Shown here: positions 4,092-61,599 of the stretch, in pieces
Position numbering within the stretch: the first letter of the stretch is position 1
How the letters are laid out: each line of letters begins with the position of its first letter
From: a virus
Reading direction: 5' to 3' (one strand)
IMG/VR virus record: IMGVR_UViG_3300004807_000018
Location: 1 to 64,000 of that record
Length of the DNA: 64,000 nucleotides
Notes under the pieces: generated by a model
What the model was told of the DNA's origin: nothing
Seen by the model: only the letters and a program-made list of their open reading frames with translations
The model's database searches: none
Made by a program: the position numbers and the translations under genes

Positions 4092-4477
4092 GCACATTTG
4101 AACTAAGGATCATCGAGCACGGAGAGCCGGAGCTGTGGCCAATCTTGGGGCCTCTCATGGCGAGTGAGGAAGTAGCCAAAAAGCGTGGCGGCTACCCCAT
4201 GTTCAGCAAGCCCGGCCAGACGTGGATTTTCGCGATCCGTGACGGCACGGTAGTCGGGTTCAACTCGGTTCTGAACGGCAGGCCAGCCAGGATGCTCTAC
4301 GCCTTTGCCTGGGGAGACTCTGAGGTCTACGAAGCTGTAGTCCGCGCTGCTGACTCGATGGCTTCCCCGCTCCAATCAACGGTGCTCAAAACAAACCTGC
4401 CGGTTCTTCTGGGCCTCGGATTCAAGAAGGTCGGCGACAAGGGAGCTCGGTACGCGATCGTCGTAAAGGGTGGCTGA
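4088..4477 (+). CDS. Putative GNAT-fold acetyltransferase-like protein
   Basis: 129 aa; WIFAIRDGTVVGF strand and C-terminal LLGLGFKKVG resemble GNAT motifs. Confidence 0.55.
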   Translation: MSTFELRIIEHGEPELWPILGPLMASEEVAKKRGGYPMFSKPGQTWIFAIRDGTVVGFNSVLNGRPARMLYAFAWGDSEVYEAVVRAADSMASPLQSTVLKTNLPVLLGLGFKKVGDKGARYAIVVKGG

Positions 4478-5793
4478 TGGGCAAAAAGATTTACCTCGAG
4501 GTCGATACGTACACGGCGGTGCAGCGGAGGCTACAGTTCATCTTTGAGCACTTCGACAACGTGTATGTGTCGTTCTCTGGTGGAAAAGACTCCGGGCTGC
4601 TCTTAAACCTCGTGCTCTCGTACATGAGGGCGAACGGCATCACGAAGAAGATCGGCGTGTTCCATCAAGATTTTGAGGCGCAGTACACCGAGACAACACG
4701 CTACGTCGAGCGCGTGATGACTTCGAATCTCGATCTCATTGAACCGTTTTGGGAGTGCCTCCCCAAGAGTTCGAAGACGGCCACGTCGATGTACGAGCAG
4801 TACTGGATTCCGTGGGATCCAGCCAAACAAGACATCTGGGTGCGTCCCATGCCCGAGTTCTACGGGGTGATCAACGTCGACAACAACCCGTTCGACTTCT
4901 TCACCTTTGGCATGATGCAGGAGGACGTCTATCGGGAGTTCGGCCCCTGGTATCACAGGGTAGTTTGCGGATCCAAAGGGCGCACGATCGGGCTCATCGG
5001 AATCCGTTCAGATGAGTCACTGAACCGGTGGAGAGCTGCTTCGACGGAGCGCGAATCTTCATACCTTGGCGCGAACTGGACATCAGGGATCTCCGAGAAC
5101 GTGTGGTGCGGCTACCCACTGTACGACTGGCCAGTTGAGGACATCTGGACAGCCAACGCCAAATTCGGCTACGACTACAACAAACTCTACGACCTCATGC
5201 ATGCCGCAGGGCTGAGCGTTCACGAGATGCGCGTTGCCTCTCCTTTCCACGACTGGGCAATCAGCACCTTGAAGCTGTACCGCGTCCTGGAGCCCAACAT
5301 CTGGGCGCGAATGGTGGGCAGAGTCAACGGAGCGAACTTCACGGCCATCTATGGCGGTACAGATGCTGTCGCGTGGAAGAACATCAAGCTTCCACCGGGC
5401 CACACGTGGAAGACCTACGCCGAGTTTCTTTTGTCGACACTGCCGGAGGACACGCGAAACACTTACCTATCGAAGATCGAGGCCAGCAAGAAGTCTTGGA
5501 AGGTAGGTGGAGCTCGAAGTCCTGAACTAATCGAGCAACTGATTGCCGAGGGAGCGCCTGTCATCCGCACGGGAGAAACCAACAACCGCGGTAAAGGCGC
5601 ACACGAGGTGATCCGGTTTGATGACTACCTGGATGACACGGGCGTCGACGATTTTCGACTTGTTCCGACATGGAAGCGCCTTGTGATTTGCATCCTCAAA
5701 AACGACCATCTTTGCAAATACATGGGCTTCGCTCAGACCAAGAGGGAGGTTGAGCGGAAGAAAGCGATCATGGAGAAGTACGCGAATCTATGA
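4477..5793 (+). CDS. ibrA: PAPS-reductase-family/DUF3440 protein (IbrA/YbdN-like)
   Basis: PP-loop VSFSGGKDSG, GIRSDESLNRW, YPLYDW, MRVASPF, C-terminal PTWKRLVICILKNDHLCKYMGF. Confidence 0.9.
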   Translation: MGKKIYLEVDTYTAVQRRLQFIFEHFDNVYVSFSGGKDSGLLLNLVLSYMRANGITKKIGVFHQDFEAQYTETTRYVERVMTSNLDLIEPFWECLPKSSKTATSMYEQYWIPWDPAKQDIWVRPMPEFYGVINVDNNPFDFFTFGMMQEDVYREFGPWYHRVVCGSKGRTIGLIGIRSDESLNRWRAASTERESSYLGANWTSGISENVWCGYPLYDWPVEDIWTANAKFGYDYNKLYDLMHAAGLSVHEMRVASPFHDWAISTLKLYRVLEPNIWARMVGRVNGANFTAIYGGTDAVAWKNIKLPPGHTWKTYAEFLLSTLPEDTRNTYLSKIEASKKSWKVGGARSPELIEQLIAEGAPVIRTGETNNRGKGAHEVIRFDDYLDDTGVDDFRLVPTWKRLVICILKNDHLCKYMGFAQTKREVERKKAIMEKYANL

Positions 5794-38914: not shown

Positions 38915-39066
38915 TTTTGCGGTTCATCCTGCCCAGCGATAATGCCGTCCACGACCTTGGTGAAAAACCGGTGTGCGAGAACGGATCCAATGACCACCGG
39001 GGCCAGCGCAAGCAGTCCGGCCGCTACGCCAAGCAGCACGCCGAACACGGGGAGAAAAGTTGTCAT
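38911..39066 (-). CDS. Small membrane protein (51 aa)
   Basis: MTTFLPVFGVLLGVAAGLL...; overlaps the terminase stop and the portal start. Confidence 0.6.
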   Translation of the reverse strand: MTTFLPVFGVLLGVAAGLLALAPVVIGSVLAHRFFTKVVDGIIAGQDEPQK

Positions 39067-40511
39067 CAGTAGACGCCGATCTTCTTGCGGGTTGGTGCGG
39101 TGCGCTCAGCCATCGCGTCGGCCAAAGCGTCTACCCAGTCGTCGTTGCGTCCTCTCGGGAACGCGCGAAGTTCTTCAATGAAGTCTTTCGCGTACTTGGA
39201 GTTTAGTAGCTTCAAATTGCCAGCGTTGACCTGCGCTGCTGAGGGCTCGGCTCTTAGTTCCTTGTCTCCGGAGACAGGAAGCACGACCACGCTGTAACCA
39301 GCGTGCAGAGCAAGGAACTTCTGGGCCGACTCCTTGCCCGCTGCGCCTGGATCCTGAGGACCACGGATGCGCGAAGGCTTTCGAAGGTCGGCTTCCTGCC
39401 GGATGCGCCTGTTGCGCTTATTCGGCTCGTGCTGGAAGCGCACGACGTCCGCATAGAAGATCCCGTCTGAATCCGGCCCGAAAAGCTCGACACCAGCAGT
39501 CCAGTCTCCGTCGTCCTCTGTCGCGCCAAGGTCCCACGCAAGGCAGCTTTTAAGCCCTGCGGGTATCGCCTCGACGATCTCAATCTTGTCCGGATGGAAT
39601 AGCGATCCTTCTGGAGGAGTCGGGTTGCCCTGGAACAAGGCTTCAAACTTATGGGCGCCCGCGTCCTTGAGCTGCTGAAGAATGAACTTCTTCGGTTTTT
39701 GCTCTGGCCACAGCGGCTCGCCGACTTCTCTGCCGAGAACGTCGCCTTCCACGGCAAGAGCCGGGAAGTTGATGACGGTCCAGCCGTGATCAGGCTGGGC
39801 GGTCAGCCGCCCAATGAGGTCGTCTTCGTGCCAGCGCGTGGCAATAATAACGACGATCGTGTCCGGCCAGAACCGCTGGACGATTGCGCCGGTGTACCAC
39901 TCCCAAATGTTCTCCCGAATGGTTTCGGAAGAAGCTTCCTCCCAGCTCTTGATCGGGTCATCAATGATGATCAGCCGGAGCCTAGGGATACCGGTAGGAG
40001 GCGTTCCAACACCCCGAACCGAGACCGTCCCGCCAGTGGTGAAGGACCACTCATCGAGCGCTGTCGCGTCCGAAGAGAGAATGCCACGCTCGTGCGCCAG
40101 GTCCCTTGCAGGTTTGCTAAGCTGCTTTTCGGCAAACCGCTGGTTGTATCCCGTGAGAAGCGCGTTCTCGCCCGGGAAGTGCTCGCCCCAGTAGACCGGC
40201 AAGCGTCGGGTGATCGTGTCAGACTTGGCGTGCTGCGGAGGCATCGAGAGGATGACCCGCTGCAGACGACCCTCGATGATCTCTTGGACTACCTCCTCGC
40301 ACAGCCAATCAATGTGGTGCGGAACGAGGTAGTAGCTGGGAATCGTGGTGTCGTACCACTTCCTGTAGGTTGGCCTTGTGCTAGCTTTCGCCAGAACCTT
40401 AGCCTGAATCTGCTCCTTGATCGGGATCCCGCGCCGGGCCGCTTCCGCGAGCCTCTCGGACAAAGGAATCGCATTGAGGGGAATTCGCGAGCTCCTGCCA
40501 AATCGACTCAA
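39066..40511 (-). CDS. terL: Terminase large subunit
   Basis: Walker A SMPPQHAKS, Walker B IIIDDP, TRWHEDDL, nuclease AWDLG and DDWVDA; exact start uncertain. Confidence 0.92.
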   Translation of the reverse strand: MSRFGRSSRIPLNAIPLSERLAEAARRGIPIKEQIQAKVLAKASTRPTYRKWYDTTIPSYYLVPHHIDWLCEEVVQEIIEGRLQRVILSMPPQHAKSDTITRRLPVYWGEHFPGENALLTGYNQRFAEKQLSKPARDLAHERGILSSDATALDEWSFTTGGTVSVRGVGTPPTGIPRLRLIIIDDPIKSWEEASSETIRENIWEWYTGAIVQRFWPDTIVVIIATRWHEDDLIGRLTAQPDHGWTVINFPALAVEGDVLGREVGEPLWPEQKPKKFILQQLKDAGAHKFEALFQGNPTPPEGSLFHPDKIEIVEAIPAGLKSCLAWDLGATEDDGDWTAGVELFGPDSDGIFYADVVRFQHEPNKRNRRIRQEADLRKPSRIRGPQDPGAAGKESAQKFLALHAGYSVVVLPVSGDKELRAEPSAAQVNAGNLKLLNSKYAKDFIEELRAFPRGRNDDWVDALADAMAERTAPTRKKIGVY

Positions 40512-40968
40512 TGAGAGCCTCGTCCGTTGTATCGTTTAGGGTCAAATCGACCTTGGAAGTGTTGGAGAATTTGCCTCCCACGAGTTGGGCCGCTGTCTCG
40601 ACTGCATTGAGCAGCAAAGCGTGGTCGCCAGCTTCCCTTGCCTTGTTGGCTATCCCTTGGATTTCGAGAAGTTGGCCCTCCAGCGTGGCAATCGGGATGA
40701 TCTTGATGTCCTGCTCAAGGTGCTGCTTTCGCACACGCTCAAACCGCTCAAGGAGCACTTTTCGAGCCCTGGAACCGTTGACTTGAATGTCGAACTTGAT
40801 CGCAGGGTTGTCGAAATTGAGGGCGCTGATTGAGGATCGGACTGGAGTCGTCGTTCCAGGGAATACCGATTGCCAGGATTCACGAATGTCCTTTGCAGAC
40901 TGAAACACCGCAAAGGCATCGACGATGTAGTGAAGCTGGCGCGTTGAAAAGCCGGGGCCTTTGCTCAT
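40399..40968 (-). CDS. Terminase small subunit (putative)
   Basis: Immediately upstream of terL; helical, GGKFSN..VDL C-terminal pattern. Confidence 0.65.
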   Translation of the reverse strand: MSKGPGFSTRQLHYIVDAFAVFQSAKDIRESWQSVFPGTTTPVRSSISALNFDNPAIKFDIQVNGSRARKVLLERFERVRKQHLEQDIKIIPIATLEGQLLEIQGIANKAREAGDHALLLNAVETAAQLVGGKFSNTSKVDLTLNDTTDEALIESIWQELANSPQCDSFVREARGSGPARDPDQGADSG

Positions 40969-41618
40969 TAGATCCGCGCACCGCAGCCGCAGTACGCCTC
41001 CAGTTCGCCTCGCTTAAATCTGGGAGGCCTATTTAGCGCGTCGCCAAACTCTGCAAGCTGTCCGTTCCAAGCGCCGTAGCGACGAACGACGCCGGCGAAC
41101 TCTTCAATATCGTGAGCGCGAGTGCACCAGACAGGGCTACCGTTCCGAAGAACCGGCATGCCGTACTCGGTCATCTCTTGCCCGCAGTGGTAAAGCTCGT
41201 GCTCGATGACTGCGCAGCGGCTCACGATGTCCGCATCGTAGAACCACGGGGCATTAAGCGTAATCAGGAAGTCCGGCCAGTTGTCCTGCGGATCCCAGGA
41301 TTCCCTGCGTGCCCAACTCTGGATCAGTTCTGTCGATCGCCCTTGCGACCACTTTGCAACCTGTCCTTGCGGGACTTCGGCCTGTCCGGCGAGGATCTTT
41401 CCCTTTTCTTTCGCGCCATAGCTTGCCCACACGAACAGAATCTTCGCTTCGAGCAAATGCTGGTGGTCTTCGTTGTAGTACTGCGGGACGTCGCCCGTGA
41501 TGAACATCTCTTCGGCCCATCTCCGAACTTCGGGGGCAGGCTCGAAGTGAATGCCGGAGCTTAAAACCGAGGCAGGAATAACCGGGAACTCAAGCTCAGA
41601 CCCGCTACGCTTAGCCAC
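40968..41618 (-). CDS. Putative phage metallopeptidase
   Basis: HELYH zincin motif, HDIEEFAGVVRRYG. Confidence 0.85.
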   Translation of the reverse strand: MAKRSGSELEFPVIPASVLSSGIHFEPAPEVRRWAEEMFITGDVPQYYNEDHQHLLEAKILFVWASYGAKEKGKILAGQAEVPQGQVAKWSQGRSTELIQSWARRESWDPQDNWPDFLITLNAPWFYDADIVSRCAVIEHELYHCGQEMTEYGMPVLRNGSPVWCTRAHDIEEFAGVVRRYGAWNGQLAEFGDALNRPPRFKRGELEAYCGCGARI

Positions 41619-41627
41619 CTCGCACCT

Positions 41628-41849
41628 TTAGTCGTTGCGGCTTACGCTTTCTCGCGCAAAAAACATGAGCGCAATGCAAATCGACACGGTCGAGACAAGC
41701 AGTTCTTGCTTAATCGATGCTTGATCCAAAGATTGCCCCGAAATCATCCACAGAGCGCAGCAGATCAGCACCGATATCCCAAAGCTGAGCAGCAGAAAAC
41801 AGGCGACCATTCCGACAAACGCGAAACAGTCGCCCAGGAACTTCCACAT
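41628..41849 (-). CDS. Small two-TM membrane protein
   Basis: Two hydrophobic segments. Confidence 0.6.
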   Translation of the reverse strand: MWKFLGDCFAFVGMVACFLLLSFGISVLICCALWMISGQSLDQASIKQELLVSTVSICIALMFFARESVSRND

Positions 41850-42325
41850 TAGAATCCCCAGCTTCCGCCGACGATCAGCCCCGCGTTCGTAAGCGAGAGC
41901 TGATTGATCTGGAATGCTTTCGAGAGGTCCGCTTTCTCGCCGATCCCGCCGAAGAGGGAGAAATTGGAATTGAAGTGGTATCGAACAACACCAGCAAAAC
42001 CAGCGACGGCGCTTTCGTCCTTGACGTCATAACCCCCGAATAGATCGAAACCGACCGTGAGATTCGGTACTTGACCAAAATTGAATCCCAGAAAGGACCA
42101 CCCTTTTGCCAGAGGAGCGTAACTCTTGACCTCGTTGAGTGCGATTACGGCATCGTGGCCGCGCTGGATGAACTCAGCGCCAGACCACGGGCCAGCGAAC
42201 GGGTTAGATGTCGGTGCGGTTGCTTGCAGGCTCACCGCAAGAACTGGCTTTAGGGTTGGGGCACTGTCCGCAAACGAGCAGGCAGAAAGCACGGCGAGAA
42301 GGGCAAGACTAAGGAAGTGTTTCAT
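41849..42325 (-). CDS. Exported protein / lipoprotein with beta-barrel-like C-terminus
   Basis: Signal peptide with LSAC lipobox; alternating beta-strands; ends in SWGF. Confidence 0.6.
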   Translation of the reverse strand: MKHFLSLALLAVLSACSFADSAPTLKPVLAVSLQATAPTSNPFAGPWSGAEFIQRGHDAVIALNEVKSYAPLAKGWSFLGFNFGQVPNLTVGFDLFGGYDVKDESAVAGFAGVVRYHFNSNFSLFGGIGEKADLSKAFQINQLSLTNAGLIVGGSWGF

Positions 42326-42593
42326 AGATGCTCCGCAGCTTTTCGAAGCTGCTTGGTAAACCGCGAAGGCTTTCGCCTGCGGCAATTCCTGGTCATGTCG
42401 ATCGGCACGGACGGTTCTTTAGCGAGTGCAGAGCCTGGCAAGCGCCAAGTCGGGGCCTCTACGCTTGGGATGCATTCACCGGAGACGACTTCTTGCCCCT
42501 GCAAGGCTGGGCATGTGCAGACCGACAACCGCCTGGTGATCGTGTCGGACATGCCATGCCGTGCGGGCATCAAAACGAAGCTGCTTGGCCCCA

Positions 42594-42944
42594 TTAGGCG
42601 CTGCGAACGATCGACAGATCGGCAACGAACTCAAGGCCTGCGTACTCGGCAAGGTCCGCGCCACGGCGAACAAGGTAGGAGGCCTTCGAAAGGTCGATCG
42701 CCTCGACGAGATCGGCGGGAAGACCCTTGACGTTGTCGGTGATCGTCAGAGCGAGTTGCTCAGCGTCCTTTGCGCCCTGAACCTTGGCGGTCGCCTCGAC
42801 GTTGATGCCGCTTCCGACTTCGAGGGAAACGACCTGATCGGGAAAGCTGGTGAGGGTTACCGGGTGACTGGCAAGGTGAAACACCTTGAGCTTGGTGTTT
42901 CCTTCGACGACGTACAGATCAGCGGTTGCGGTGTAGCTTGACAT
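42594..42944 (-). CDS. Hypothetical protein (116 aa)
   Basis: AAGGA SD, good codon usage. Confidence 0.7.
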   Translation of the reverse strand: MSSYTATADLYVVEGNTKLKVFHLASHPVTLTSFPDQVVSLEVGSGINVEATAKVQGAKDAEQLALTITDNVKGLPADLVEAIDLSKASYLVRRGADLAEYAGLEFVADLSIVRSA

Positions 42945-42991
42945 GTTTGTTCCTTGGGGCTAGGCCCCGAATCCTAAAATCGTTTGGATGG

Positions 42992-43351
42992 CTAACGTCT
43001 GCGCCTGCCCGGTGACGCTGAGTCTCGAGCCTGCGCAATCTGTTCGATCTGCTTGTTGAGCGCCGAGATCTCGGCCCTTGGTGAAATCAGATCGCCTTCT
43101 GCTTTGAGATCCGCATAGGGCTTGAGTGCACGCACAAGGACCACCGCTTCATACAGCGGGTCTTTGTGCCGAGTGCCGACGCAAAGCGAGCGAGACCACG
43201 CGGGATCACACTGGCGCGGATACTTGTCAAATTCACCCTCCGGCATGGGGGCGCATCTGACACGCTTGTCGATGACTTCGTTCATTGAGCGCGAGTCCTG
43301 ATTGAATTGACTGTGGGCAGCTTTTGCGCTAGTCGCCGTAGCGCCGAACAA
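42992..43351 (-). CDS. Hypothetical protein
   Basis: ORF; start uncertain. Confidence 0.5.
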   Translation of the reverse strand: MFGATATSAKAAHSQFNQDSRSMNEVIDKRVRCAPMPEGEFDKYPRQCDPAWSRSLCVGTRHKDPLYEAVVLVRALKPYADLKAEGDLISPRAEISALNKQIEQIAQARDSASPGRRRR

Positions 43352-43422: not shown

Positions 43423-43641
43423 TTAGAGAATGTCTCCCGTGAGCATTTCAGCAGGCAAATAGGCAGTCATAAAGCGCATGCCTTCCTCGATCTTGACGGC
43501 CTGCTCGTCCTTGACAAACGTGCATTCAAGGGGCACACCGCGAACGTTCGTTGACCGAATGATAAACAGTCCCAACTCGTAGATCGGGCCATCTTTGCCC
43601 ATTTGGATCTTTTCTGGAAGGCGCTTGCTTGCCATGGTCAA
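43423..43641 (-). CDS. Hypothetical protein (72 aa)
   Basis: Coupled ORF. Confidence 0.6.
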   Translation of the reverse strand: MTMASKRLPEKIQMGKDGPIYELGLFIIRSTNVRGVPLECTFVKDEQAVKIEEGMRFMTAYLPAEMLTGDIL

Positions 43642-43895
43642 CTGGCCTCGGCTGGAAGACAGATTTCGACCTGACCGAAAACTTTGGCCGTGACGGGTTT
43701 GTTTTGGTCTTTAAGGAACAAGCAAGGAACCTGCGTCTTTGCCCCTGCAAGCAGGATCAACACTTCGACCCACCCTTCTTCGTCGTTTGCAGACTTCGTT
43801 ATGTGGGTAACGTCTTGGCCGTTGACTTTGACAACGATATCCCTGTGCTTGCCATTCGGAAACTCTGCCCGTACGGTTTTAGCGTCAATAAACAT
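43638..43895 (-). CDS. Hypothetical protein
   Basis: ATG at 43895 right after the DNase II stop. Confidence 0.6.
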   Translation of the reverse strand: MFIDAKTVRAEFPNGKHRDIVVKVNGQDVTHITKSANDEEGWVEVLILLAGAKTQVPCLFLKDQNKPVTAKVFGQVEICLPAEAS

Positions 43896-43897
43896 GG

Positions 43898-44953
43898 TCA
43901 ACTGGCCTTTTTGTGGCTGGTCTTGATGTGCGCGTGAGTCTCGTGTGTAGACATGCCCGGAGCCGCGATCACAAGGCCCATTCTTGAAAGAGCATTGTGC
44001 AGACGTGGGTTCTGGAACCCTACGCAACCGCCGCCACGCTTGCGCTGCGAGACCATTCGGTTGATGTCACCCACCAAAACCCAGGGGCTTGCAGCGTCGG
44101 CCGAGATTGCCCACTTCGCGTGATCGTGCGCTTCAGAGAAGGTGTAGGGCATGCCAACAGGCTGCATGCTCACGAACTTAATGTCAGCAACGCGGTGAAT
44201 GCCGTCCTTGTCCGCGGTGGGAGCGATCTCACCACGGATCCACGTCTCGACGTCAAGGTCGACGCCAAGAGCACTGCCCACGCCGTCGTTCCAGAAATCG
44301 CCTCCCCACTCGCGGTTCTTGGCGAACAACTTGAACGGCATGCCGCCCAGCGTGGTGAGATCCAGCACGTCAAACGCGGGGTGCGGATGAGGCGTGAGAT
44401 CCTTATGCCAAAGATCAAAAAGCGATTGTGGAACGTCCACGGTCACGGGCTCGACGCCGCCAGCAGAGTAAACCTGCGGCTCTTGGTGGCACAGCATCTG
44501 AGCAGCGATCAGCCCAAGAGTGTCCAGCGAGAGCGAAAGGCACAGGAACGTCTGCCCGTAAATCGGAGTTGGTGCAGCCTTCCCGCCAGGCACCGGAAAC
44601 TTAGGCCACGAGTGAACCAGCAGGAACCCGGTCTTGCTCGCCGTATCCCAGCAGATCACGCCCTTGGTGTGGCCTAGCGATTCGTCGTCCGGGCCACCAG
44701 GCGTGCCGTCTGGCTTCTCGTCGTTGTACAGGATAAAGCTGGACCCAGTCACCCCAACTTGCGCGAGTGTCTCGTGAACTGCGCCCGAACCCTGGTCAAG
44801 CCTGTGAGGCGAAGCCGAAGGCACATCGCTTAGCGAGTCTGCATAGGCATACTCGTAGCCGCTGGCTCCGTTTTCACCCGCTAGCCGAGCGACCTTGTAG
44901 GCGAAAAACCAGTCGACAGGCTGGCCAGATTCATTGAGTGCTTGAATAGGCAT
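43898..44953 (-). CDS. Deoxyribonuclease II family nuclease (PLD fold)
   Basis: GQPVDWFFAYK, GHTKG, GFLLVHSWPKFP, YGQTFLC, DHAKWAIS, GDINRMVSQRKRGGG. Confidence 0.92.
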   Translation of the reverse strand: MPIQALNESGQPVDWFFAYKVARLAGENGASGYEYAYADSLSDVPSASPHRLDQGSGAVHETLAQVGVTGSSFILYNDEKPDGTPGGPDDESLGHTKGVICWDTASKTGFLLVHSWPKFPVPGGKAAPTPIYGQTFLCLSLSLDTLGLIAAQMLCHQEPQVYSAGGVEPVTVDVPQSLFDLWHKDLTPHPHPAFDVLDLTTLGGMPFKLFAKNREWGGDFWNDGVGSALGVDLDVETWIRGEIAPTADKDGIHRVADIKFVSMQPVGMPYTFSEAHDHAKWAISADAASPWVLVGDINRMVSQRKRGGGCVGFQNPRLHNALSRMGLVIAAPGMSTHETHAHIKTSHKKAS

Positions 44954-45033
44954 GGCGGTTCACAAGGCAAATCTCGGGAGCAAAACCCAGAACAGAACGA
45001 AGCTCGTTACACTGCAGCCGACGAGGAACCCAA

Positions 45034-45363
45034 TTACGAACGTGACCCAAGGGCATTTGAGGTCGAGTCGGAACATGGCATCACGGGTTCCAATCCTCTC
45101 GCGCACGAGTCGCAGCGCCGACGCCTGTTGTAATACTTGCGGCCACCCCAAACACGGATCTTCTGCTCGTGTCCGCATTCAAGTTCCTCAAGATCCGGCT
45201 CAGGCACGTTCTGGAACCTGGGGCTCACGTTGATGTGCCGCCCGTGCTCGTCTCCGATGATCGATGGGTTTTCAAGCCAGAACGAAGTGGCCGGGCAGTC
45301 AAACGGTCTCGATCCTTCCACTAGCCAGATGTAGGCTGTGACTCGTCGGAGAACTTGAGCCAT
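45034..45363 (-). CDS. Hypothetical protein
   Basis: LECGH...RRRCDSC pattern; ATG at 45363. Confidence 0.55.
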   Translation of the reverse strand: MAQVLRRVTAYIWLVEGSRPFDCPATSFWLENPSIIGDEHGRHINVSPRFQNVPEPDLEELECGHEQKIRVWGGRKYYNRRRRCDSCARGLEPVMPCSDSTSNALGSRS

Positions 45364-45755
45364 GAGAAACCGAGGATCCAGCGCAAAGCCGCAACGCAAA
45401 ACATGAGCACTGCCGCAAACAAGAAGCCGTCCTTCTCCATCGCGCGTCCTCGTAGGACGCTGAACACGCAGTAGGTTGCTAGGCCAGCGTAGACGTCGCC
45501 GCACAACTCGTTTGCGTCCATTCTGGATTTGCAAAATGTGCAGCCGCCTATCTCGTGCGTGCATCGCTCTCGCGGAGTGCGGACGCCCCAGATAAGCAGG
45601 ATGCCGAGGATAAACGCAAAGTTGCACCAGAACGCATCCCAAAACTCGCTGGTTCTACCAACCAGGCTGAGCACAAATGCATCGAGCTTGGCCGCGACCA
45701 CGGAGCACACCACAATCACGAGTGCGGTGAGCGCTTGCGCAAGGAGCGTCTTCAT
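45321..45755 (-). CDS. Multi-pass membrane protein (144 aa)
   Basis: Three to four hydrophobic segments; lysis region. Confidence 0.6.
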   Translation of the reverse strand: MKTLLAQALTALVIVVCSVVAAKLDAFVLSLVGRTSEFWDAFWCNFAFILGILLIWGVRTPRERCTHEIGGCTFCKSRMDANELCGDVYAGLATYCVFSVLRGRAMEKDGFLFAAVLMFCVAALRWILGFSWLKFSDESQPTSG

Positions 45756-45761
45756 GGTCTG

Positions 45762-45953
45762 TTAGGCGCTTGGCCCCTTCCGAAACTGAACGAACGTCGG
45801 GATGAGCGTTGAGGCGAACGAGATCATTGCCGTCCAGAACTCAAGGTGCGCCGAGTCAGCTCGCGCCACCTGGTGCAGGATCCGGCTCAGGAGCCACACC
45901 ACAAGCGCGAAAGCAATGCACTTGAGCACGTAGCCAAAGAAGTGCGCGTTCAC
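45762..45953 (-). CDS. Two-TM membrane protein (holin candidate)
   Basis: 63 aa, two TM segments, near the lysin. Confidence 0.5.
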   Translation of the reverse strand: MNAHFFGYVLKCIAFALVVWLLSRILHQVARADSAHLEFWTAMISFASTLIPTFVQFRKGPSA

Positions 45954-45956
45954 TGC

Positions 45957-46169
45957 TTACTTCTGCCTTCCCTCGAGGATTCCGAGGATGCGCTCAACCT
46001 TGCCGATAAGGTCCTGAAACAGCGTCGTCGACTCCCGTTGCCCAGATTCCAACCGCTCAATGCGCTCGCCATGCGATTGCTGTTTTGCCCACATACGGAC
46101 GAGCACTGCTCCACCCGAAACGGCGCAGCCTGCAAGGAAAACGCTGATGGTTTGTTCTGACTGTGTCAT
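45957..46169 (-). CDS. One-TM coiled-coil protein (holin/hemolysin-XhlA-like candidate)
   Basis: N-terminal TM then RIERLE coiled coil. Confidence 0.55.
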   Translation of the reverse strand: MTQSEQTISVFLAGCAVSGGAVLVRMWAKQQSHGERIERLESGQRESTTLFQDLIGKVERILGILEGRQK

Positions 46170-46378
46170 GGTTCTGGATCGCAGCAAATTTTGTCAATCG
46201 CGACTGGCGGGCGAAGAATCTGGACGGTCTCATGACCGATAAACTTTTGATTGGAGTCGAGCTCACTTTCGGCAACAATTGCGTACCGGCTAGTTCCGGG
46301 CTCGCGAAGCACCGCAAAGCCGAACCCATTGCGCTCGACTGCCGCGCGGGCCTCTCGAATCGCAACGTCCTTGTCCAT
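46166..46378 (-). CDS. Hypothetical protein
   Basis: ATG at 46378 after the lysin stop. Confidence 0.6.
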   Translation of the reverse strand: MDKDVAIREARAAVERNGFGFAVLREPGTSRYAIVAESELDSNQKFIGHETVQILRPPVAIDKICCDPEP

Positions 46379-46382
46379 GGAC

Positions 46383-47002
46383 TCACGCAGTTGGCAGCCA
46401 AAGGCCAGCCTGATTAGGATCGGAAGCAGCCGCACCGACGAGCGTGTCGACGTCGACATCGAGCCCCGCCACAGTTGTGGTCTGGCCCTGGAGAATGACT
46501 TCCTTTGCTTCGGCCTTGGATCCAGACCAGCCCATCGACTGGCTCAGCCAACCATAGTGAGCAATCCCGGCTCCGATCACCTTGTCCATCACCAGGCCAG
46601 AGCCGTAGACGGTCACGAGGTAACCCGCTGAAGACAGCTCGTTGTGAACTGCTTTGAAGTAGGCCAGGACAGCAGGCAGATCGGACTGAGGCGCGTCGTA
46701 GTCCACCGCAAAGCCAATAGCCTTAGCTTTTGGCAGCTTGAGTGCTTGAGCGACCTTGACGGCTTCCCAGCGTGGACTTTCCCGATCGCAGCAGACATCT
46801 CAGAGGCGGTGCCAGCCACCTCCCACACCAGTCCAACCCAAACGCCAAAGCGAGCGCACTCACGGATCTCAGAGGCGGTGACCCGTTTGTTCGGAAAGCT
46901 CGCAGTGTTGGGGCTGACGTAGCGAATAATGCCGGAGACGCCGAGGCCCTTGAGCTTCGCGACCTTGCCGATGACTGAATTCGGGGTGTCAATGAGCTTC
47001 AT
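46383..47002 (-). pseudogene. DUF1906/GH25-like endolysin interrupted by a 1-nt frameshift near 46767
   Basis: GIIRYVS..K.VTASE..GLVWE in one frame; AVKVAQAL..IGFAVDYD..VYGS..WLSQS..DVDVD in the other. Confidence 0.75.
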
Positions 47003-47285
47003 GTGAACCTCGATGCTCGATGCAAATTGGTGCTCTCGGAAACAGGCGGCTGATAGGGCGACCATGTAGGCCCGTCCGCCTGCTCCAAAGCCACGAGTAA
47101 TACGCCCGTGGCACACGTCCGACTTTCTTGTTGGCGCTCAGATAGCGTGAGCGTGCCGAAACCATCCTGTTTTCCCCATGTCAGGCCACGGTTACTCACC
47201 GCACGGGGTATTCGAAACGCCCCAGGGATCGTAATGTAGGAATTGATTCTCGCGCCAGGGCTCACGTGAGATTTCCCTTCACGTT

Positions 47286-47356: not shown

Positions 47357-47433
47357 TGGGAGCAGGGGCTGGATTCGAACCAGCGAATAGATGGTTATGA
47401 GCCATCCGTGATGGACCGCTACACGACCCTGCT
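47357..47433 (-). tRNA. tRNA with CAT anticodon (Met or Ile2), encoded CCA
   Basis: AGCAGGG/CCCTGCT acceptor stem, GATGG-CTCATAA-CCATC anticodon arm, GCTGG-TTCGAAT-CCAGC T-arm. Confidence 0.9.
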
Positions 47434-58308: not shown

Positions 58309-58513
58309 TGTAGAAAACCTCCATCTGGGCTTGCTCGATTGCGGTGAGCTGTCGTAAGTGATTGCGGACGAAAAATGGGCTCACCAGGTGCGACTTTTGG
58401 TCGCGGCCGTCGAGCCACGAAAGCGTTTCGTTTGCGAGTTGCACGGGCGTCCCCTTAGGCGGGAACCTCAAATCGTCGTGAGCCAGGTGCACGATGTGCG
58501 TCAGCCGGATCAC
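58298..58513 (-). CDS. Hypothetical protein
   Basis: GTG at 58513 coupled to the MTase stop. Confidence 0.55.
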   Translation of the reverse strand: MIRLTHIVHLAHDDLRFPPKGTPVQLANETLSWLDGRDQKSHLVSPFFVRNHLRQLTAIEQAQMEVFYNVI

Positions 58514-59640
58514 GCTGGAACCCCGTTGCGCTGGTGACGGGCCCACCCTATGCGCTCCCGAGCGATTTCCATGGCGATGGGATTGCTGTCGCAGCCAGCG
58601 AAATTGACCCCCTCAAGCACGGCTGCCACCCCAGTGGTTCCGCTGCCAAGGAAGGGGTCGACGATCAGTGCACCAGGGGGGGCAACGAGACGGATAAGCC
58701 AGCGCATGAGCGCGATCGGTTTCACCGTTGGCCAGGGGTTCTTGGCGCTTTCCTTCGTCCCCTCAGACTGAAAGCCGCCCATCCCACCATGGCCCCATTT
58801 CAGAAGCCTTTCCGGGAGCTGCTCGCATCCGAGGTCTCGCTCGCGCCGGGACGCCTTAGCGCAGTAAAAGAACCGCGAAGCTCCGCCAGCGTCTTCTAGT
58901 CTCAGTGATGAGCATTCCTTCTGGCCCTCGAACGGCCTGGAGGTGTTCTTGTGCTTCGCGGACGCTCGTCTTCTTGGGTTCGCGCCGGACTTCAGAACGC
59001 CCGTCTGCTCATCAAGCATCGCCGCAGCGGTCTCGTCGAGCGCCACATTAGCAGGCCACCGCCCAATGTCACTTGCCGAACCTCCACCCGTGCGAATATC
59101 GGTGACGGATCCGGTCTCGCGGGTACCTGAATGGCCTCGATCTCTGGAGCAGTTCGCGGAGTACTGCGCGTCCGACACTGGGATCCGAGCAGCGTCGATG
59201 TGCAACGCTCCACAGCCGTGACCTAGAAGGTTTTCCCGAACCGTGCCGGCGAGTGGCCGACGCGCAACGGTGATTGGCTCCCATCCAGGTTTCAACGCAG
59301 TGCCCCATCCAAGCCACCGGCCATGCTGGTTGTGCGACTTGGGATAGCCCTGCCCGTACAGCCATGTGATGTGGTCAAGAACCTCGAAACCCGCATCCTC
59401 GATCCTGCACACCTGACGGTGGAAGGTCCGGGTACCACCGAACGCGAGCAGGTAGCCGCCTGGCTTTAGGGTCTGCAGCGCTTCGGCCCAAACCTCGACG
59501 CTTGGAATCTGCGCGTCCCACTCGCTGTCCATGAACGAGAGCCCGTAAGGCGGATCGGTCACGATTGCGTGAGCCGAGTTGGGCGTCAGGGAGCTCAAAA
59601 ACGACAAGGCATCCTGGTCACGCAGAATTACATCAGGCAT
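58510..59640 (-). CDS. Beta-class amino (N6A/N4C) DNA methyltransferase
   Basis: VTDPPY, WPTVKP, DPFLGSGTT. Confidence 0.92.
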   Translation of the reverse strand: MPDVILRDQDALSFLSSLTPNSAHAIVTDPPYGLSFMDSEWDAQIPSVEVWAEALQTLKPGGYLLAFGGTRTFHRQVCRIEDAGFEVLDHITWLYGQGYPKSHNQHGRWLGWGTALKPGWEPITVARRPLAGTVRENLLGHGCGALHIDAARIPVSDAQYSANCSRDRGHSGTRETGSVTDIRTGGGSASDIGRWPANVALDETAAAMLDEQTGVLKSGANPRRRASAKHKNTSRPFEGQKECSSLRLEDAGGASRFFYCAKASRRERDLGCEQLPERLLKWGHGGMGGFQSEGTKESAKNPWPTVKPIALMRWLIRLVAPPGALIVDPFLGSGTTGVAAVLEGVNFAGCDSNPIAMEIARERIGWARHQRNGVPA

Positions 59641-60862
59641 GCTTGGCCTCCCAGATGTCGAGGGCTGGCGTGACACGCGAGCACCTGGCCCGAATCATCT
59701 CGCAATACTGTGGATTGGCTTCGATCCCCCAGGCCTCGTGACCTAACTCGATCGCTTGCTCGAGTGTCGTTCCCGATCCCGCGAAGAGATCCAAAACCCG
59801 TCCGTGGGGGGGGGTAGTCGCCAGAATGCATGTGCGCGGGATCTCTCTCGGGAACGTCGCGAAGTGAGCGCCTTTGTAGGGGCTCGTGCTGATTTCCCAC
59901 ACCGTGCGCTTGTTGCGCGTACCGGTTGAAAAGGTGTCCTTGCGGTCTGGCCTGTGGCTTGCGTTGGTATGGCCCGGGACTAGGACATGAAGCTGCTTGC
60001 CCGACTCTCTCTTGAAGGAATCGCGAGACCGCTTGGCATAGCCGGATAGCCCCGACTTGGTTCTGAACTGCCCTTCGATGTCCAGCCCGTACTTACCGTG
60101 ATCCACGTTTCCGGGAGGTCCTCCGACAGCCTTTTCTGCGATGGCCGCGCAGTCGTAGAAGTATCTGCTCGACTTCGTCAGATGAAAAATGTATTCGTGA
60201 GCCCGGGTGCAACGATCCTTGACACTCTCAGGAAGGGGCGCAGGCTTTGCCCAAATGATGTCGTTGCGGATGATCCACCCTCGCTCATGGAGTGCAAGTG
60301 CCACTCTCCACGGAATCCCGATCAGGCTCTTCTTGGGAATGCCTTTGAGTGGCATGCGGTTAGGCTGCTGGTCAGGACCGCAATGAGCCCAACGGTCTCC
60401 TTGATGTCCACCTCCTGCATGCTTGCCAATGCGGCCGGCGCCGGTGGCATACGAGTCACCGAGATTCAGCCAGACCGATCCGTCTTTGCGCAGGACCCGC
60501 CAGACTTCGTCGAAGATGCTGACCAGATGCTCAACGTAGAGGTTTGGATGTGGCTCAAGTCCAAGACATCCGAGCCAGCCGCCGCACTTACAGCAGACTG
60601 CCGACTTACTGACTTTGCGCGTCGCGGAGTGGACGTTCTTGGTGCATCCGACCATCGACGTGCTCCCGTTCTTCGCAGGCAGCACCGTCTCTTCGAACTC
60701 ATGGGCGCAATCAGGGTCACCGCCCCAGAACGATGGCTGTATTCCATAGTTTCTGAGTCCGTAGTAAGGAGGGCTGGTCACCACGGTGTGGAAGAAGTTG
60801 TCCGGCAGGCTCTTCACCTGCTCTTGCGCAAACCCCGGAAGGATGTGGAGGCGGTCATTCAT
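59633..60862 (-). CDS. Beta-class N4-cytosine-type DNA methyltransferase
   Basis: TSPPY, WLNLGDSY, HFATFP, DLFAGSGTT. Confidence 0.92.
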   Translation of the reverse strand: MNDRLHILPGFAQEQVKSLPDNFFHTVVTSPPYYGLRNYGIQPSFWGGDPDCAHEFEETVLPAKNGSTSMVGCTKNVHSATRKVSKSAVCCKCGGWLGCLGLEPHPNLYVEHLVSIFDEVWRVLRKDGSVWLNLGDSYATGAGRIGKHAGGGHQGDRWAHCGPDQQPNRMPLKGIPKKSLIGIPWRVALALHERGWIIRNDIIWAKPAPLPESVKDRCTRAHEYIFHLTKSSRYFYDCAAIAEKAVGGPPGNVDHGKYGLDIEGQFRTKSGLSGYAKRSRDSFKRESGKQLHVLVPGHTNASHRPDRKDTFSTGTRNKRTVWEISTSPYKGAHFATFPREIPRTCILATTPPHGRVLDLFAGSGTTLEQAIELGHEAWGIEANPQYCEMIRARCSRVTPALDIWEAKHA

Positions 60863-61599
60863 GCCGCACCGCCAAAGTCGAAGCACATCTGCCCGTTAGT
60901 CGCCTTCGTTGGGGTCAGCGAGTCCAGCAGAGCGCTGATGTTCGAGACAATTTCTGTGATGGCCGAACGCCTGGGCGCTTGCGCCAGGCCCCAGAAAGGG
61001 TTCACCCTGGTTGCCCACGTTTCAGTGGTCAGCGCGTTGCCATGAATCACCGTGGCAGGGATGCCCCAGAGCGTCAGGTTTACGTAACACATGTCGCATG
61101 CCAGGGAGCTGATGTCTGTGCAAACCGCTCTCATGTTCAGCGGGCTGTAGCCGCGATCCACAAGTGCCTCTGCGATCGAAAGCACCATGGCTCCGGATCC
61201 GCACGCAGCCTCCTCGACGTCCAGTGGCCGGTCATCGGGGATATCTTTCACAGTGAGTTGGGCCATCACCCGGCAGATGTCCATTGGGGTGTAGAACTCA
61301 CCGCGGTGCGCGGCATCGCTCCTGGAACTCCACTCCATGTGCACCGGCCCGAGGACGTCCGTGAACGGTCTCTCCTGCATCTCGGAAATCAGTGCGCCGA
61401 GCGCGACGGCAAATTCCTGCATGTGCTCGGGCTGCCACCGCTTGGCTTCCTCGAGGTAGTCGGCTTCCCTCCGCCCCGCCGAGGCAGCGCATGCCGCGAG
61501 GTAAACGAACGCGCGAAACACTTCGTGCGAATAGCGTCCGCTCGCCGTAGCGATGCGCTCCAAGACCTTCGTTGTTGAGGGTAAGTCCTGTGGCTTCAC
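60859..61599 (-). CDS. Short N-6 DNA methylase-like protein (HsdM-like N-terminal half)
   Basis: GEFYTP, EAACGSGAM, DIS, HGNAL; no canonical NPPY/F. Confidence 0.8.
   Translation of the reverse strand: MKPQDLPSTTKVLERIATASGRYSHEVFRAFVYLAACAASAGRREADYLEEAKRWQPEHMQEFAVALGALISEMQERPFTDVLGPVHMEWSSRSDAAHRGEFYTPMDICRVMAQLTVKDIPDDRPLDVEEAACGSGAMVLSIAEALVDRGYSPLNMRAVCTDISSLACDMCYVNLTLWGIPATVIHGNALTTETWATRVNPFWGLAQAPRRSAITEIVSNISALLDSLTPTKATNGQMCFDFGGAA

Follow-up and report, generated by a model that had tools for sequence, protein, structure and literature searches.

Identity and active site of the enzyme

The window analysed here is the first 64 kb (64,000 nt) of the IMG/VR virus record IMGVR_UViG_3300004807_000018, a linear sequence of 82,169 bp with a CheckV completeness estimate of 88%. 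The subject of this study is a DNase II gene on the minus strand of the window, an open reading frame (ORF) that starts with ATG and encodes 351 aa. DNase II has so far been regarded as a eukaryotic lysosomal enzyme, together with a few bacterial oddities that have no assigned role.

43898..44953, minus strand: DNase II, bacterial-type, of a phage-associated clade; HxK at residues 95-97 and 278-280; without a signal peptide and without a C-terminal basic tail

The encoded protein matches the Pfam family DNase_II (PF03265) with E 6.5e-71 and 239.6 bits, against a cut-off of 23; the match extends over protein residues 6-325 and model positions 3-319 of 326, and no other Pfam family is matched. 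In the PDB, phmmer aligns residues 3-350 with the DNase II of Burkholderia thailandensis (5i3e/5unb; E 3.4e-93). An AlphaFold2 model built on our alignment of homologues (alignment A1; pLDDT 79.4, pTM 0.84) leads Foldseek to the same two entries (E 3.9e-34, TM 0.82). The next match has an E of 8e-3, which leaves 5i3e/5unb as the sole significant structural neighbours.

The active site is composed of two HxK motifs, GHTKG at residues 94-98 and DHAKW at residues 277-281. Residues were mapped through the phmmer alignment to the solved enzyme, with the residue roles named for that enzyme (PMC5449587). In this mapping the catalytic pairs H95/K97 and H278/K280 correspond to H100/K102 and H279/K281 of the B. 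thailandensis enzyme, where the His residues act as nucleophile and general acid and the Lys residues bind phosphate. The supporting residues D103, P117, W238-W281-R299, N298 and Q303 correspond to D108, P122, W239-W282-R298, N297 and Q302, and all of them are invariant across a 24-sequence alignment. The only ambiguous position is that of the second ‘structural’ Asp (D288 of the solved enzyme), where the phage protein and its closest relatives carry a 2-residue insertion and an invariant D286 lies a few positions upstream. The phage enzyme thus shares with the solved one its family, fold, both HxK motifs, the W-W-R triad, Asn, Gln, Pro and length class.

Judged from its sequence, 43898-44953 encodes a full-length, apparently catalytically intact DNase II. 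A first-pass annotation, drawn by a model from the letters of the window and its ORFs, had described a eukaryote-type DNase II in which both HxK motifs and the other signatures are intact, and had named an HMM search as a check. The intact motifs are borne out by the HMM, by the alignment to the solved enzyme and by the AlphaFold2 model. The eukaryote-type label does not stand: the phage DNase II belongs to the bacterial branch of the family, with an identity of 50-55% to bacterial enzymes and ~28% to giant-virus homologues.

The same annotation had remarked on the missing signal peptide. There is indeed no hydrophobic stretch at the N-terminus, but this is not a peculiarity of the phage. Of the 119 closest homologues, 112 show no N-terminal extension and in a single one the extension is signal-like, and the solved enzyme also has no signal peptide (PMC5449587); the absence is therefore a rule of the family. 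The C-terminus is more variable. A Lys/Ala/Pro-rich, histone-H1-like tail of at least 20 aa is present in 49 of the 119 (P0010-P0114 in alignment A1) and missing from the phage-associated clade.

A phage-associated clade

A protein identical to the window enzyme (P0001) is also encoded on a second contig, of 87,408 bp. The next closest proteins are the metagenomic singletons P0002-P0007, at 56-64% identity. In an IQ-TREE phylogeny these and the protein of metagenomic locus L087 form a clade with the window protein (UFBoot 100, SH-aLRT 100) that has a long stem and stands apart from all genome-derived sequences. A quick tree rooted with giant-virus-like homologues (L002-L006) agrees on the clade. 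Two marks distinguish its members, the 2-residue insertion after DHAKW and a Trp (Trp102) in place of Phe after GHTKG; a further clade-specific change, Cys310, also lies near an HxK motif. When the mark-bearing proteins of L095 and L121 and three more metagenome proteins are included, the clade has 13 rows and an SH-aLRT of 100. The differences from the B. thailandensis enzyme are accordingly the two marks, the long branch and the setting, a phage late/lysis operon.

Genomic context is readable for three lineages of the clade: the window phage, L087/L152 and L095. The DNase II proteins of L087 and L152 are 57-60% identical to the window enzyme, and in both loci an intact 228-aa homologue of the glycoside hydrolase encoded near DNase II in the window, and a one-transmembrane (TM) coiled-coil protein, are encoded ahead of the gene. 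The L087 hydrolase matches PF08924 with 84.8 bits and phrog_13480, annotated as ‘endolysin’, with E 1e-18. The two loci are 90-94% identical over the hydrolase and DNase II region, and the DNA between these genes is unrelated, which suggests that endolysin and DNase II were kept while the middle was exchanged. The linkage of endolysin to DNase II is therefore retained in one further lineage beside the window phage. The third lineage, L095, is represented by a contig of 39% GC whose genes share one strand and are closely packed; three of them have PHROG-family matches.

A tblastn search of 50,697 phage records with the DNase II protein gave no match, and the protein has no PHROG family. All scans of IMG/VR covered the records other than the window's own; with the single whole protein there was no match, and with conserved DNase II peptides only five loci (L002-L006) were found, at ~28% identity over residues 71-327. 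Their contigs, of 71-248 kb, are giant-virus-like, one being labelled a giant-virus MAG (GVMAG), and these homologues, the only other family matches in IMG/VR, resemble eukaryotic DNase II. The first-pass statement that DNase II is not a standard phage gene is in keeping with these counts, and our text searches of the literature found no paper that puts DNase II in phage.

Among 185,579 bacterial species genomes, 120 loci were matched, all at no more than 52% identity and scattered over Bacteroidota, Acidobacteriota, Verrucomicrobiota, Burkholderiales, Methylobacter and others. None of the 120 carries the clade signature (the insertion together with Trp102), and no clade member is found there. 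A phmmer search of 1.84 billion cluster representatives returned 1,791 matches at E <= 1e-3 and 171 at E <= 1e-30; the DNase II family is small. No other DNase II locus, bacterial loci included, shares phage genes with the window phage. On this sequence evidence, the clade is a distinct DNase II branch carried by phages and, in the three lineages with readable context, seen so far only on phage-like DNA, a new home for the family.

Organization of the late operon

The gene lies within a minus-strand late block. From its head, the block contains a tRNA-Met, an Rv2525c-like glycoside hydrolase, ORFs of 76, 63, 144, 109 and 38 aa, and DNase II. These are followed by ORFs of 85, 70, 119 and 116 aa, a lipobox-bearing, beta-barrel-like protein, a 73-aa membrane protein, a metallopeptidase, the terminases, portal and capsid. 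The features referred to below are:

47357..47433, minus strand: tRNA-Met (CAT), at the head of the late block
46392..47008, minus strand: Rv2525c-like glycoside hydrolase, the endolysin candidate; divided between two frames as recorded, homologous to the intact L087 protein
45957..46187, minus strand: 76-aa protein that has one TM segment and, behind it, a coiled-coil-like tail (holin- or spanin-like, by hydrophobicity)
45762..45953, minus strand: 63-aa hydrophobic small protein (holin-like, by hydrophobicity)
45321..45755, minus strand: 144-aa membrane protein with three predicted TM segments
45034..45363, minus strand: 109-aa Cys/His-rich ORF with ECGH and CDSC motifs and no known family; codon-position GC indicates coding over most of its length
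44960..45076, minus strand: 38-aa peptide with a single TM segment; it shares the reading frame of DNase II and stops 6 nt ahead of the DNase II start
43638..43895, minus strand: 85-aa ORF that starts 2 nt past the DNase II stop; flanked by a 16-nt direct repeat and missing from one contig of run X2; variable cassette
43423..43635, minus strand: 70-aa ORF of no assigned function, directly after DNase II in the X2 variant
41849..42385, minus strand: lipobox-bearing, beta-barrel-like outer-membrane-type protein ending in GGSWGF
40968..41618, minus strand: putative phage metallopeptidase (PF18894)
40399-40968, minus strand: terminase small-subunit candidate
39066-40511, minus strand: terminase large subunit

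The endolysin candidate lies close to DNase II on the same strand, with three small TM protein genes between the two, as for a component of a lysis module. The position between lysis/membrane genes and the terminase, as first described, is confirmed by the annotated neighbours, and the L087/L152 lineage strengthens the link to lysis genes. In L087 and L152 the one-TM coiled-coil proteins also come after the endolysin, analogous to the 76-aa protein of the window. Translational coupling between the 38-aa ORF and DNase II is possible. PHROGs and Pfam searches of the small neighbours (43423-43895, 42594-43351, 41628-42385 and 45034-46187) gave no match. PADLOC-DB models matched neither DNase II nor any of nine neighbours, leaving a defence-system reading without support.

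DNase II does not appear to be an autonomous cargo gene, or moron. No promoter-like or terminator-like sites bracket it, and counts over the whole scan do not exceed those in shuffled controls. The gene is packed tightly against its neighbours, with gaps of 6 and 2 nt, and its GC content (0.595) and third-position GC content (GC3, 0.688) fall within one standard deviation of the phage genes (0.570 +/- 0.028 and 0.658 +/- 0.058). Because of this packing, the lack of a bracketing promoter or terminator and the phage-like composition, DNase II is an integrated member of the operon and not a typical moron. Recent transfer from a host was also considered and rejected, as composition gives no sign of it and the nearest sequence from a bacterial genome is only 52% identical.

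The endolysin gene is interrupted in the record by a missing G behind position 46767. Contigs from three metagenome runs (X1, X2 and X3) all contain this G, and adding it yields a single endolysin ORF of ~200 aa. The frameshift is therefore taken to be an error of the record or its assembly, and a broken endolysin in a decaying prophage is ruled out by the frame-restoring base in the three runs.

A second difference among the contigs concerns the 85-aa ORF. One low-depth X2 contig skips exactly 260 nt (window 43633-43892) and with them this ORF. Both junctions of the deletion have the 16-nt sequence AGGCCAGTTGACCATG, which takes in the final codons and stop of one gene and the ATG that follows. 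The 85-aa ORF resembles a cassette that comes and goes between repeated gene junctions. The possibility that it encodes an immunity protein for the nuclease was rejected: it is absent from the variant contig, no homologue lies beside the L087 or L095 genes, and expression of the B. thailandensis enzyme in E. coli needed no partner (PMC5449587).

Among the genes downstream of DNase II, the small lipobox-bearing, beta-barrel-like gene hints at a Gram-negative host. A 127-aa protein ending in GGTFKF is encoded downstream of DNase II in L087 (4005-4388) and by eye resembles the window protein that ends in GGSWGF, with no significant BLAST match between them. Both have a signal or lipobox and a beta-barrel-like C-terminus ending in Phe, and are reminiscent of Lom/Ail-type outer-membrane proteins.

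The phage genome and its occurrence

Packaging and structural genes of the phage comprise the large terminase, the small-terminase candidate, a portal and an HK97-type capsid. Genes for replication and other DNA transactions include a DnaB helicase, two DNA methyltransferases, an SNF2-type helicase, a PAPS-reductase-family protein and an exonuclease. Outside the window the record encodes an HNH endonuclease, an SbcC-like protein, a Dda-like helicase and an integrase:

L163:13747-15123 (genome 77747-79123): tyrosine-integrase-family gene, phrog_1; outside the window

The presence of this integrase gene indicates that the phage is temperate; no host flank was identified. The PAPS-reductase-family gene (phrog_2302) and the two adjacent DNA methyltransferase genes (phrog_67), at window positions 4477-5793 and 58510-60886, may have DNA-modification functions.

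A megablast search of phages with the whole region gave no match. By terminase, the nearest cultured phages are Microcystis phages, at an identity of only 45% that is uninformative on the host. Four metagenome runs labelled freshwater, each with a study code of its own and dated 2017, contain near-identical DNA; the record may derive from one of them. Runs X2-X4 have depth gaps over parts of the DNase II gene.

Bacterial homologues

Chromosomal DNase II proteins of Flavobacterium, Saprospiraceae, Verrucomicrobiota, Acidobacteriota, Burkholderiales and other groups are 46-52% identical to the phage protein and share with it the catalytic residues and the lack of a signal peptide. They differ in the Lys/Ala/Pro tails found in some of them and in their surroundings, which have no phage genes in common with the window phage. 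When flanking ORFs were clustered for ~140 bacterial DNase II loci, two recurrent neighbourhoods emerged. In ~20 loci (Flavobacterium, Saprospiraceae and Verrucomicrobiota; e.g. L067:7-9651 and L029:7195-11769), DNase II is accompanied on the same strand by a fused xanthine dehydrogenase of ~1,460 aa and XdhC, with a PF04185 phosphoesterase immediately downstream. In 10 further loci (e.g. L122:9577-11025), a convergent gene for a DUF6986 malate-synthase-like TIM barrel lies ~220 nt downstream of DNase II. These neighbourhoods suggest that bacterial DNase II takes part in nucleic-acid and purine catabolism. We know of no published description of the cluster of DNase II with xanthine dehydrogenase.

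A proposed role at lysis

The DNase II of B. thailandensis is the only characterised bacterial homologue. It works without metal at pH 4-5 but not at neutral pH, and leaves products with 3'-phosphates (Varela-Ramirez et al. 2017, PMC5449587). The place of the phage gene in the late operon, together with the lack of an export signal, argues that the protein is produced in the cytoplasm late in infection, along with the lysis and packaging proteins. By analogy with the characterised enzyme, we propose that it would be largely inactive at cytoplasmic pH and would cut unencapsidated DNA at or after lysis, a proposal to which we give about an even chance. By homology, His95 would attack the phosphodiester to form a covalent phospho-histidine intermediate and His278 would activate water, with no metal involved and with 3'-phosphate ends on the products. 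The targets would be DNA outside capsids, namely the host chromosome and unpackaged phage DNA, and packaged genomes would be shielded physically. Given that neutral pH abolishes the activity of the characterised homologue, the phage enzyme may be largely latent in the cytoplasm, in which case no inhibitor would be needed.

That the enzyme is released at lysis and acts on DNA outside cells or in biofilms, as the first-pass annotation had suggested, is plausible. Its alternative suggestion, that host or competitor DNA is degraded and a heavily methylated phage genome spared, found no supporting evidence: the phage carries two methyltransferases, but enzymes of the DNase II family are directed at the DNA backbone and are sequence-nonspecific, and physical protection of packaged DNA by the capsid is the simpler explanation.

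A parallel is found in the streptococcal DNases Spd1, Sda1 and their relatives, which are likewise encoded on temperate phages next to lysis genes. These are secreted, metal-dependent enzymes of other folds, which have signal peptides, occur in Gram-positive pathogens and are treated as virulence cargo. The phage DNase II differs from them in its PLD fold, in being metal-independent by homology, in the lack of a signal peptide, in having a phage-associated lineage to itself and in belonging to an environmental phage. A secreted DNase of the Spd1/Sda1 type was accordingly rejected as an identity for the gene product, which has no hydrophobic N-terminus and matches no Pfam family other than DNase_II. 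For Spd1, as relayed in PMC2658872, Broudy et al. (2002) proposed that breakdown of the chromosome after lysis lowers viscosity and eases the spread of virions. The benefit to the window phage would be the same, a less viscous lysate from which virions are freed more readily.

Three observations weigh against a role at lysis. The holin- and spanin-like genes beside DNase II are candidates assigned from size and hydrophobicity alone. No endolysin is seen on the 4.5-kb L095 contig, and the linkage to lysis genes thus does not hold throughout the clade. The samples, labelled freshwater, give no sign of acidity, so that an enzyme restricted to pH 4-5 might do little there. A more specific form of the proposal addresses pH directly: the enzyme would be a pH-gated, DNA-clearing component of lysis, harmless in the neutral cytoplasm and switched on when the holin collapses the pH gradient or upon release into acidic surroundings, where it would free virions from the viscous chromosome. 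This form we regard as tentative and unlikely in its entirety.

The same features can be read in other ways. The enzyme could act inside the living cell as a host-takeover nuclease, degrading the chromosome for shutdown or for nucleotides in the manner of T4 EndoII/EndoIV or T7 gp3/gp6, which are likewise phage-encoded cytoplasmic nucleases. The lack of a signal peptide would suit a cytoplasmic site of action, the phage has replication genes and methyltransferases of its own, and the occurrence of bacterial homologues in nucleic-acid and purine catabolic clusters indicates that the family can serve nucleotide turnover. The T4 and T7 nucleases, however, belong to unrelated families and are expressed early or in the middle of infection, with DNA modification or timing sparing the phage DNA, whereas the DNase II gene lies in the late lysis and packaging block, away from the replication genes, and neither a sparing mechanism nor any other means of self-protection is evident. 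The inactivity of the characterised homologue at neutral pH also argues against takeover of a living host, as do its 3'-phosphate products, which salvage uses poorly unless a phosphatase is available (PMC5449587); no phosphatase is encoded adjacent to the phage gene. With these points taken together, a role in host takeover seems improbable. A benefit to the lysogen population, in which the enzyme released by a lysing fraction, like other prophage products set free at lysis, makes DNA of the environment available as a nutrient or alters an extracellular DNA matrix, appears quite doubtful. It would fit a temperate phage, a gene placed beside lysis genes as is typical of lysis-released cargo, and a family whose bacterial clusters with xanthine dehydrogenase, XdhC, the PF04185 phosphoesterase or DUF6986 suggest a nutritional role. 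The moron signature expected of such cargo is missing in promoter, terminator, packing and composition, and the gene is kept across diverged phages of very different GC content, a retention that points to a benefit for the phage itself.

It is also conceivable, and in our view very improbable, that the clade has changed its substrate and acts on an envelope phosphodiester, a phospholipid or another polymer, aiding membrane disruption. The PLD superfamily does include phospholipases, and the long stem of the clade is accompanied by changes near both HxK motifs (Trp102, Cys310 and the insertion after DHAKW). Against this, enzymes whose DNase activity is proven show 50-55% identity to the phage protein along its entire length, and the residues proposed to position DNA (N298, Q303, P117 and both Lys) are all kept.

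Implications for the DNase II family

The new element in these results is a DNase II branch on tailed phages that is tied to an endolysin gene in at least two lineages. The gene clusters of the bacterial homologues, for their part, lead to a testable hypothesis, that DNA is catabolised down to purines. Phage DNases that are metal-independent and resistant to EDTA could also serve as reagents. Should the phage enzyme work at lysis, the known lysis accessories would gain a nuclease that needs no metal and is possibly pH-gated, and there would be a concrete setting for asking why prokaryote-type DNase II has no export signal. Were the pH-gated form of this proposal true, the enzyme would represent a new functional class among lysis accessories, and a prokaryote-type DNase II would for the first time have an assigned physiological role.

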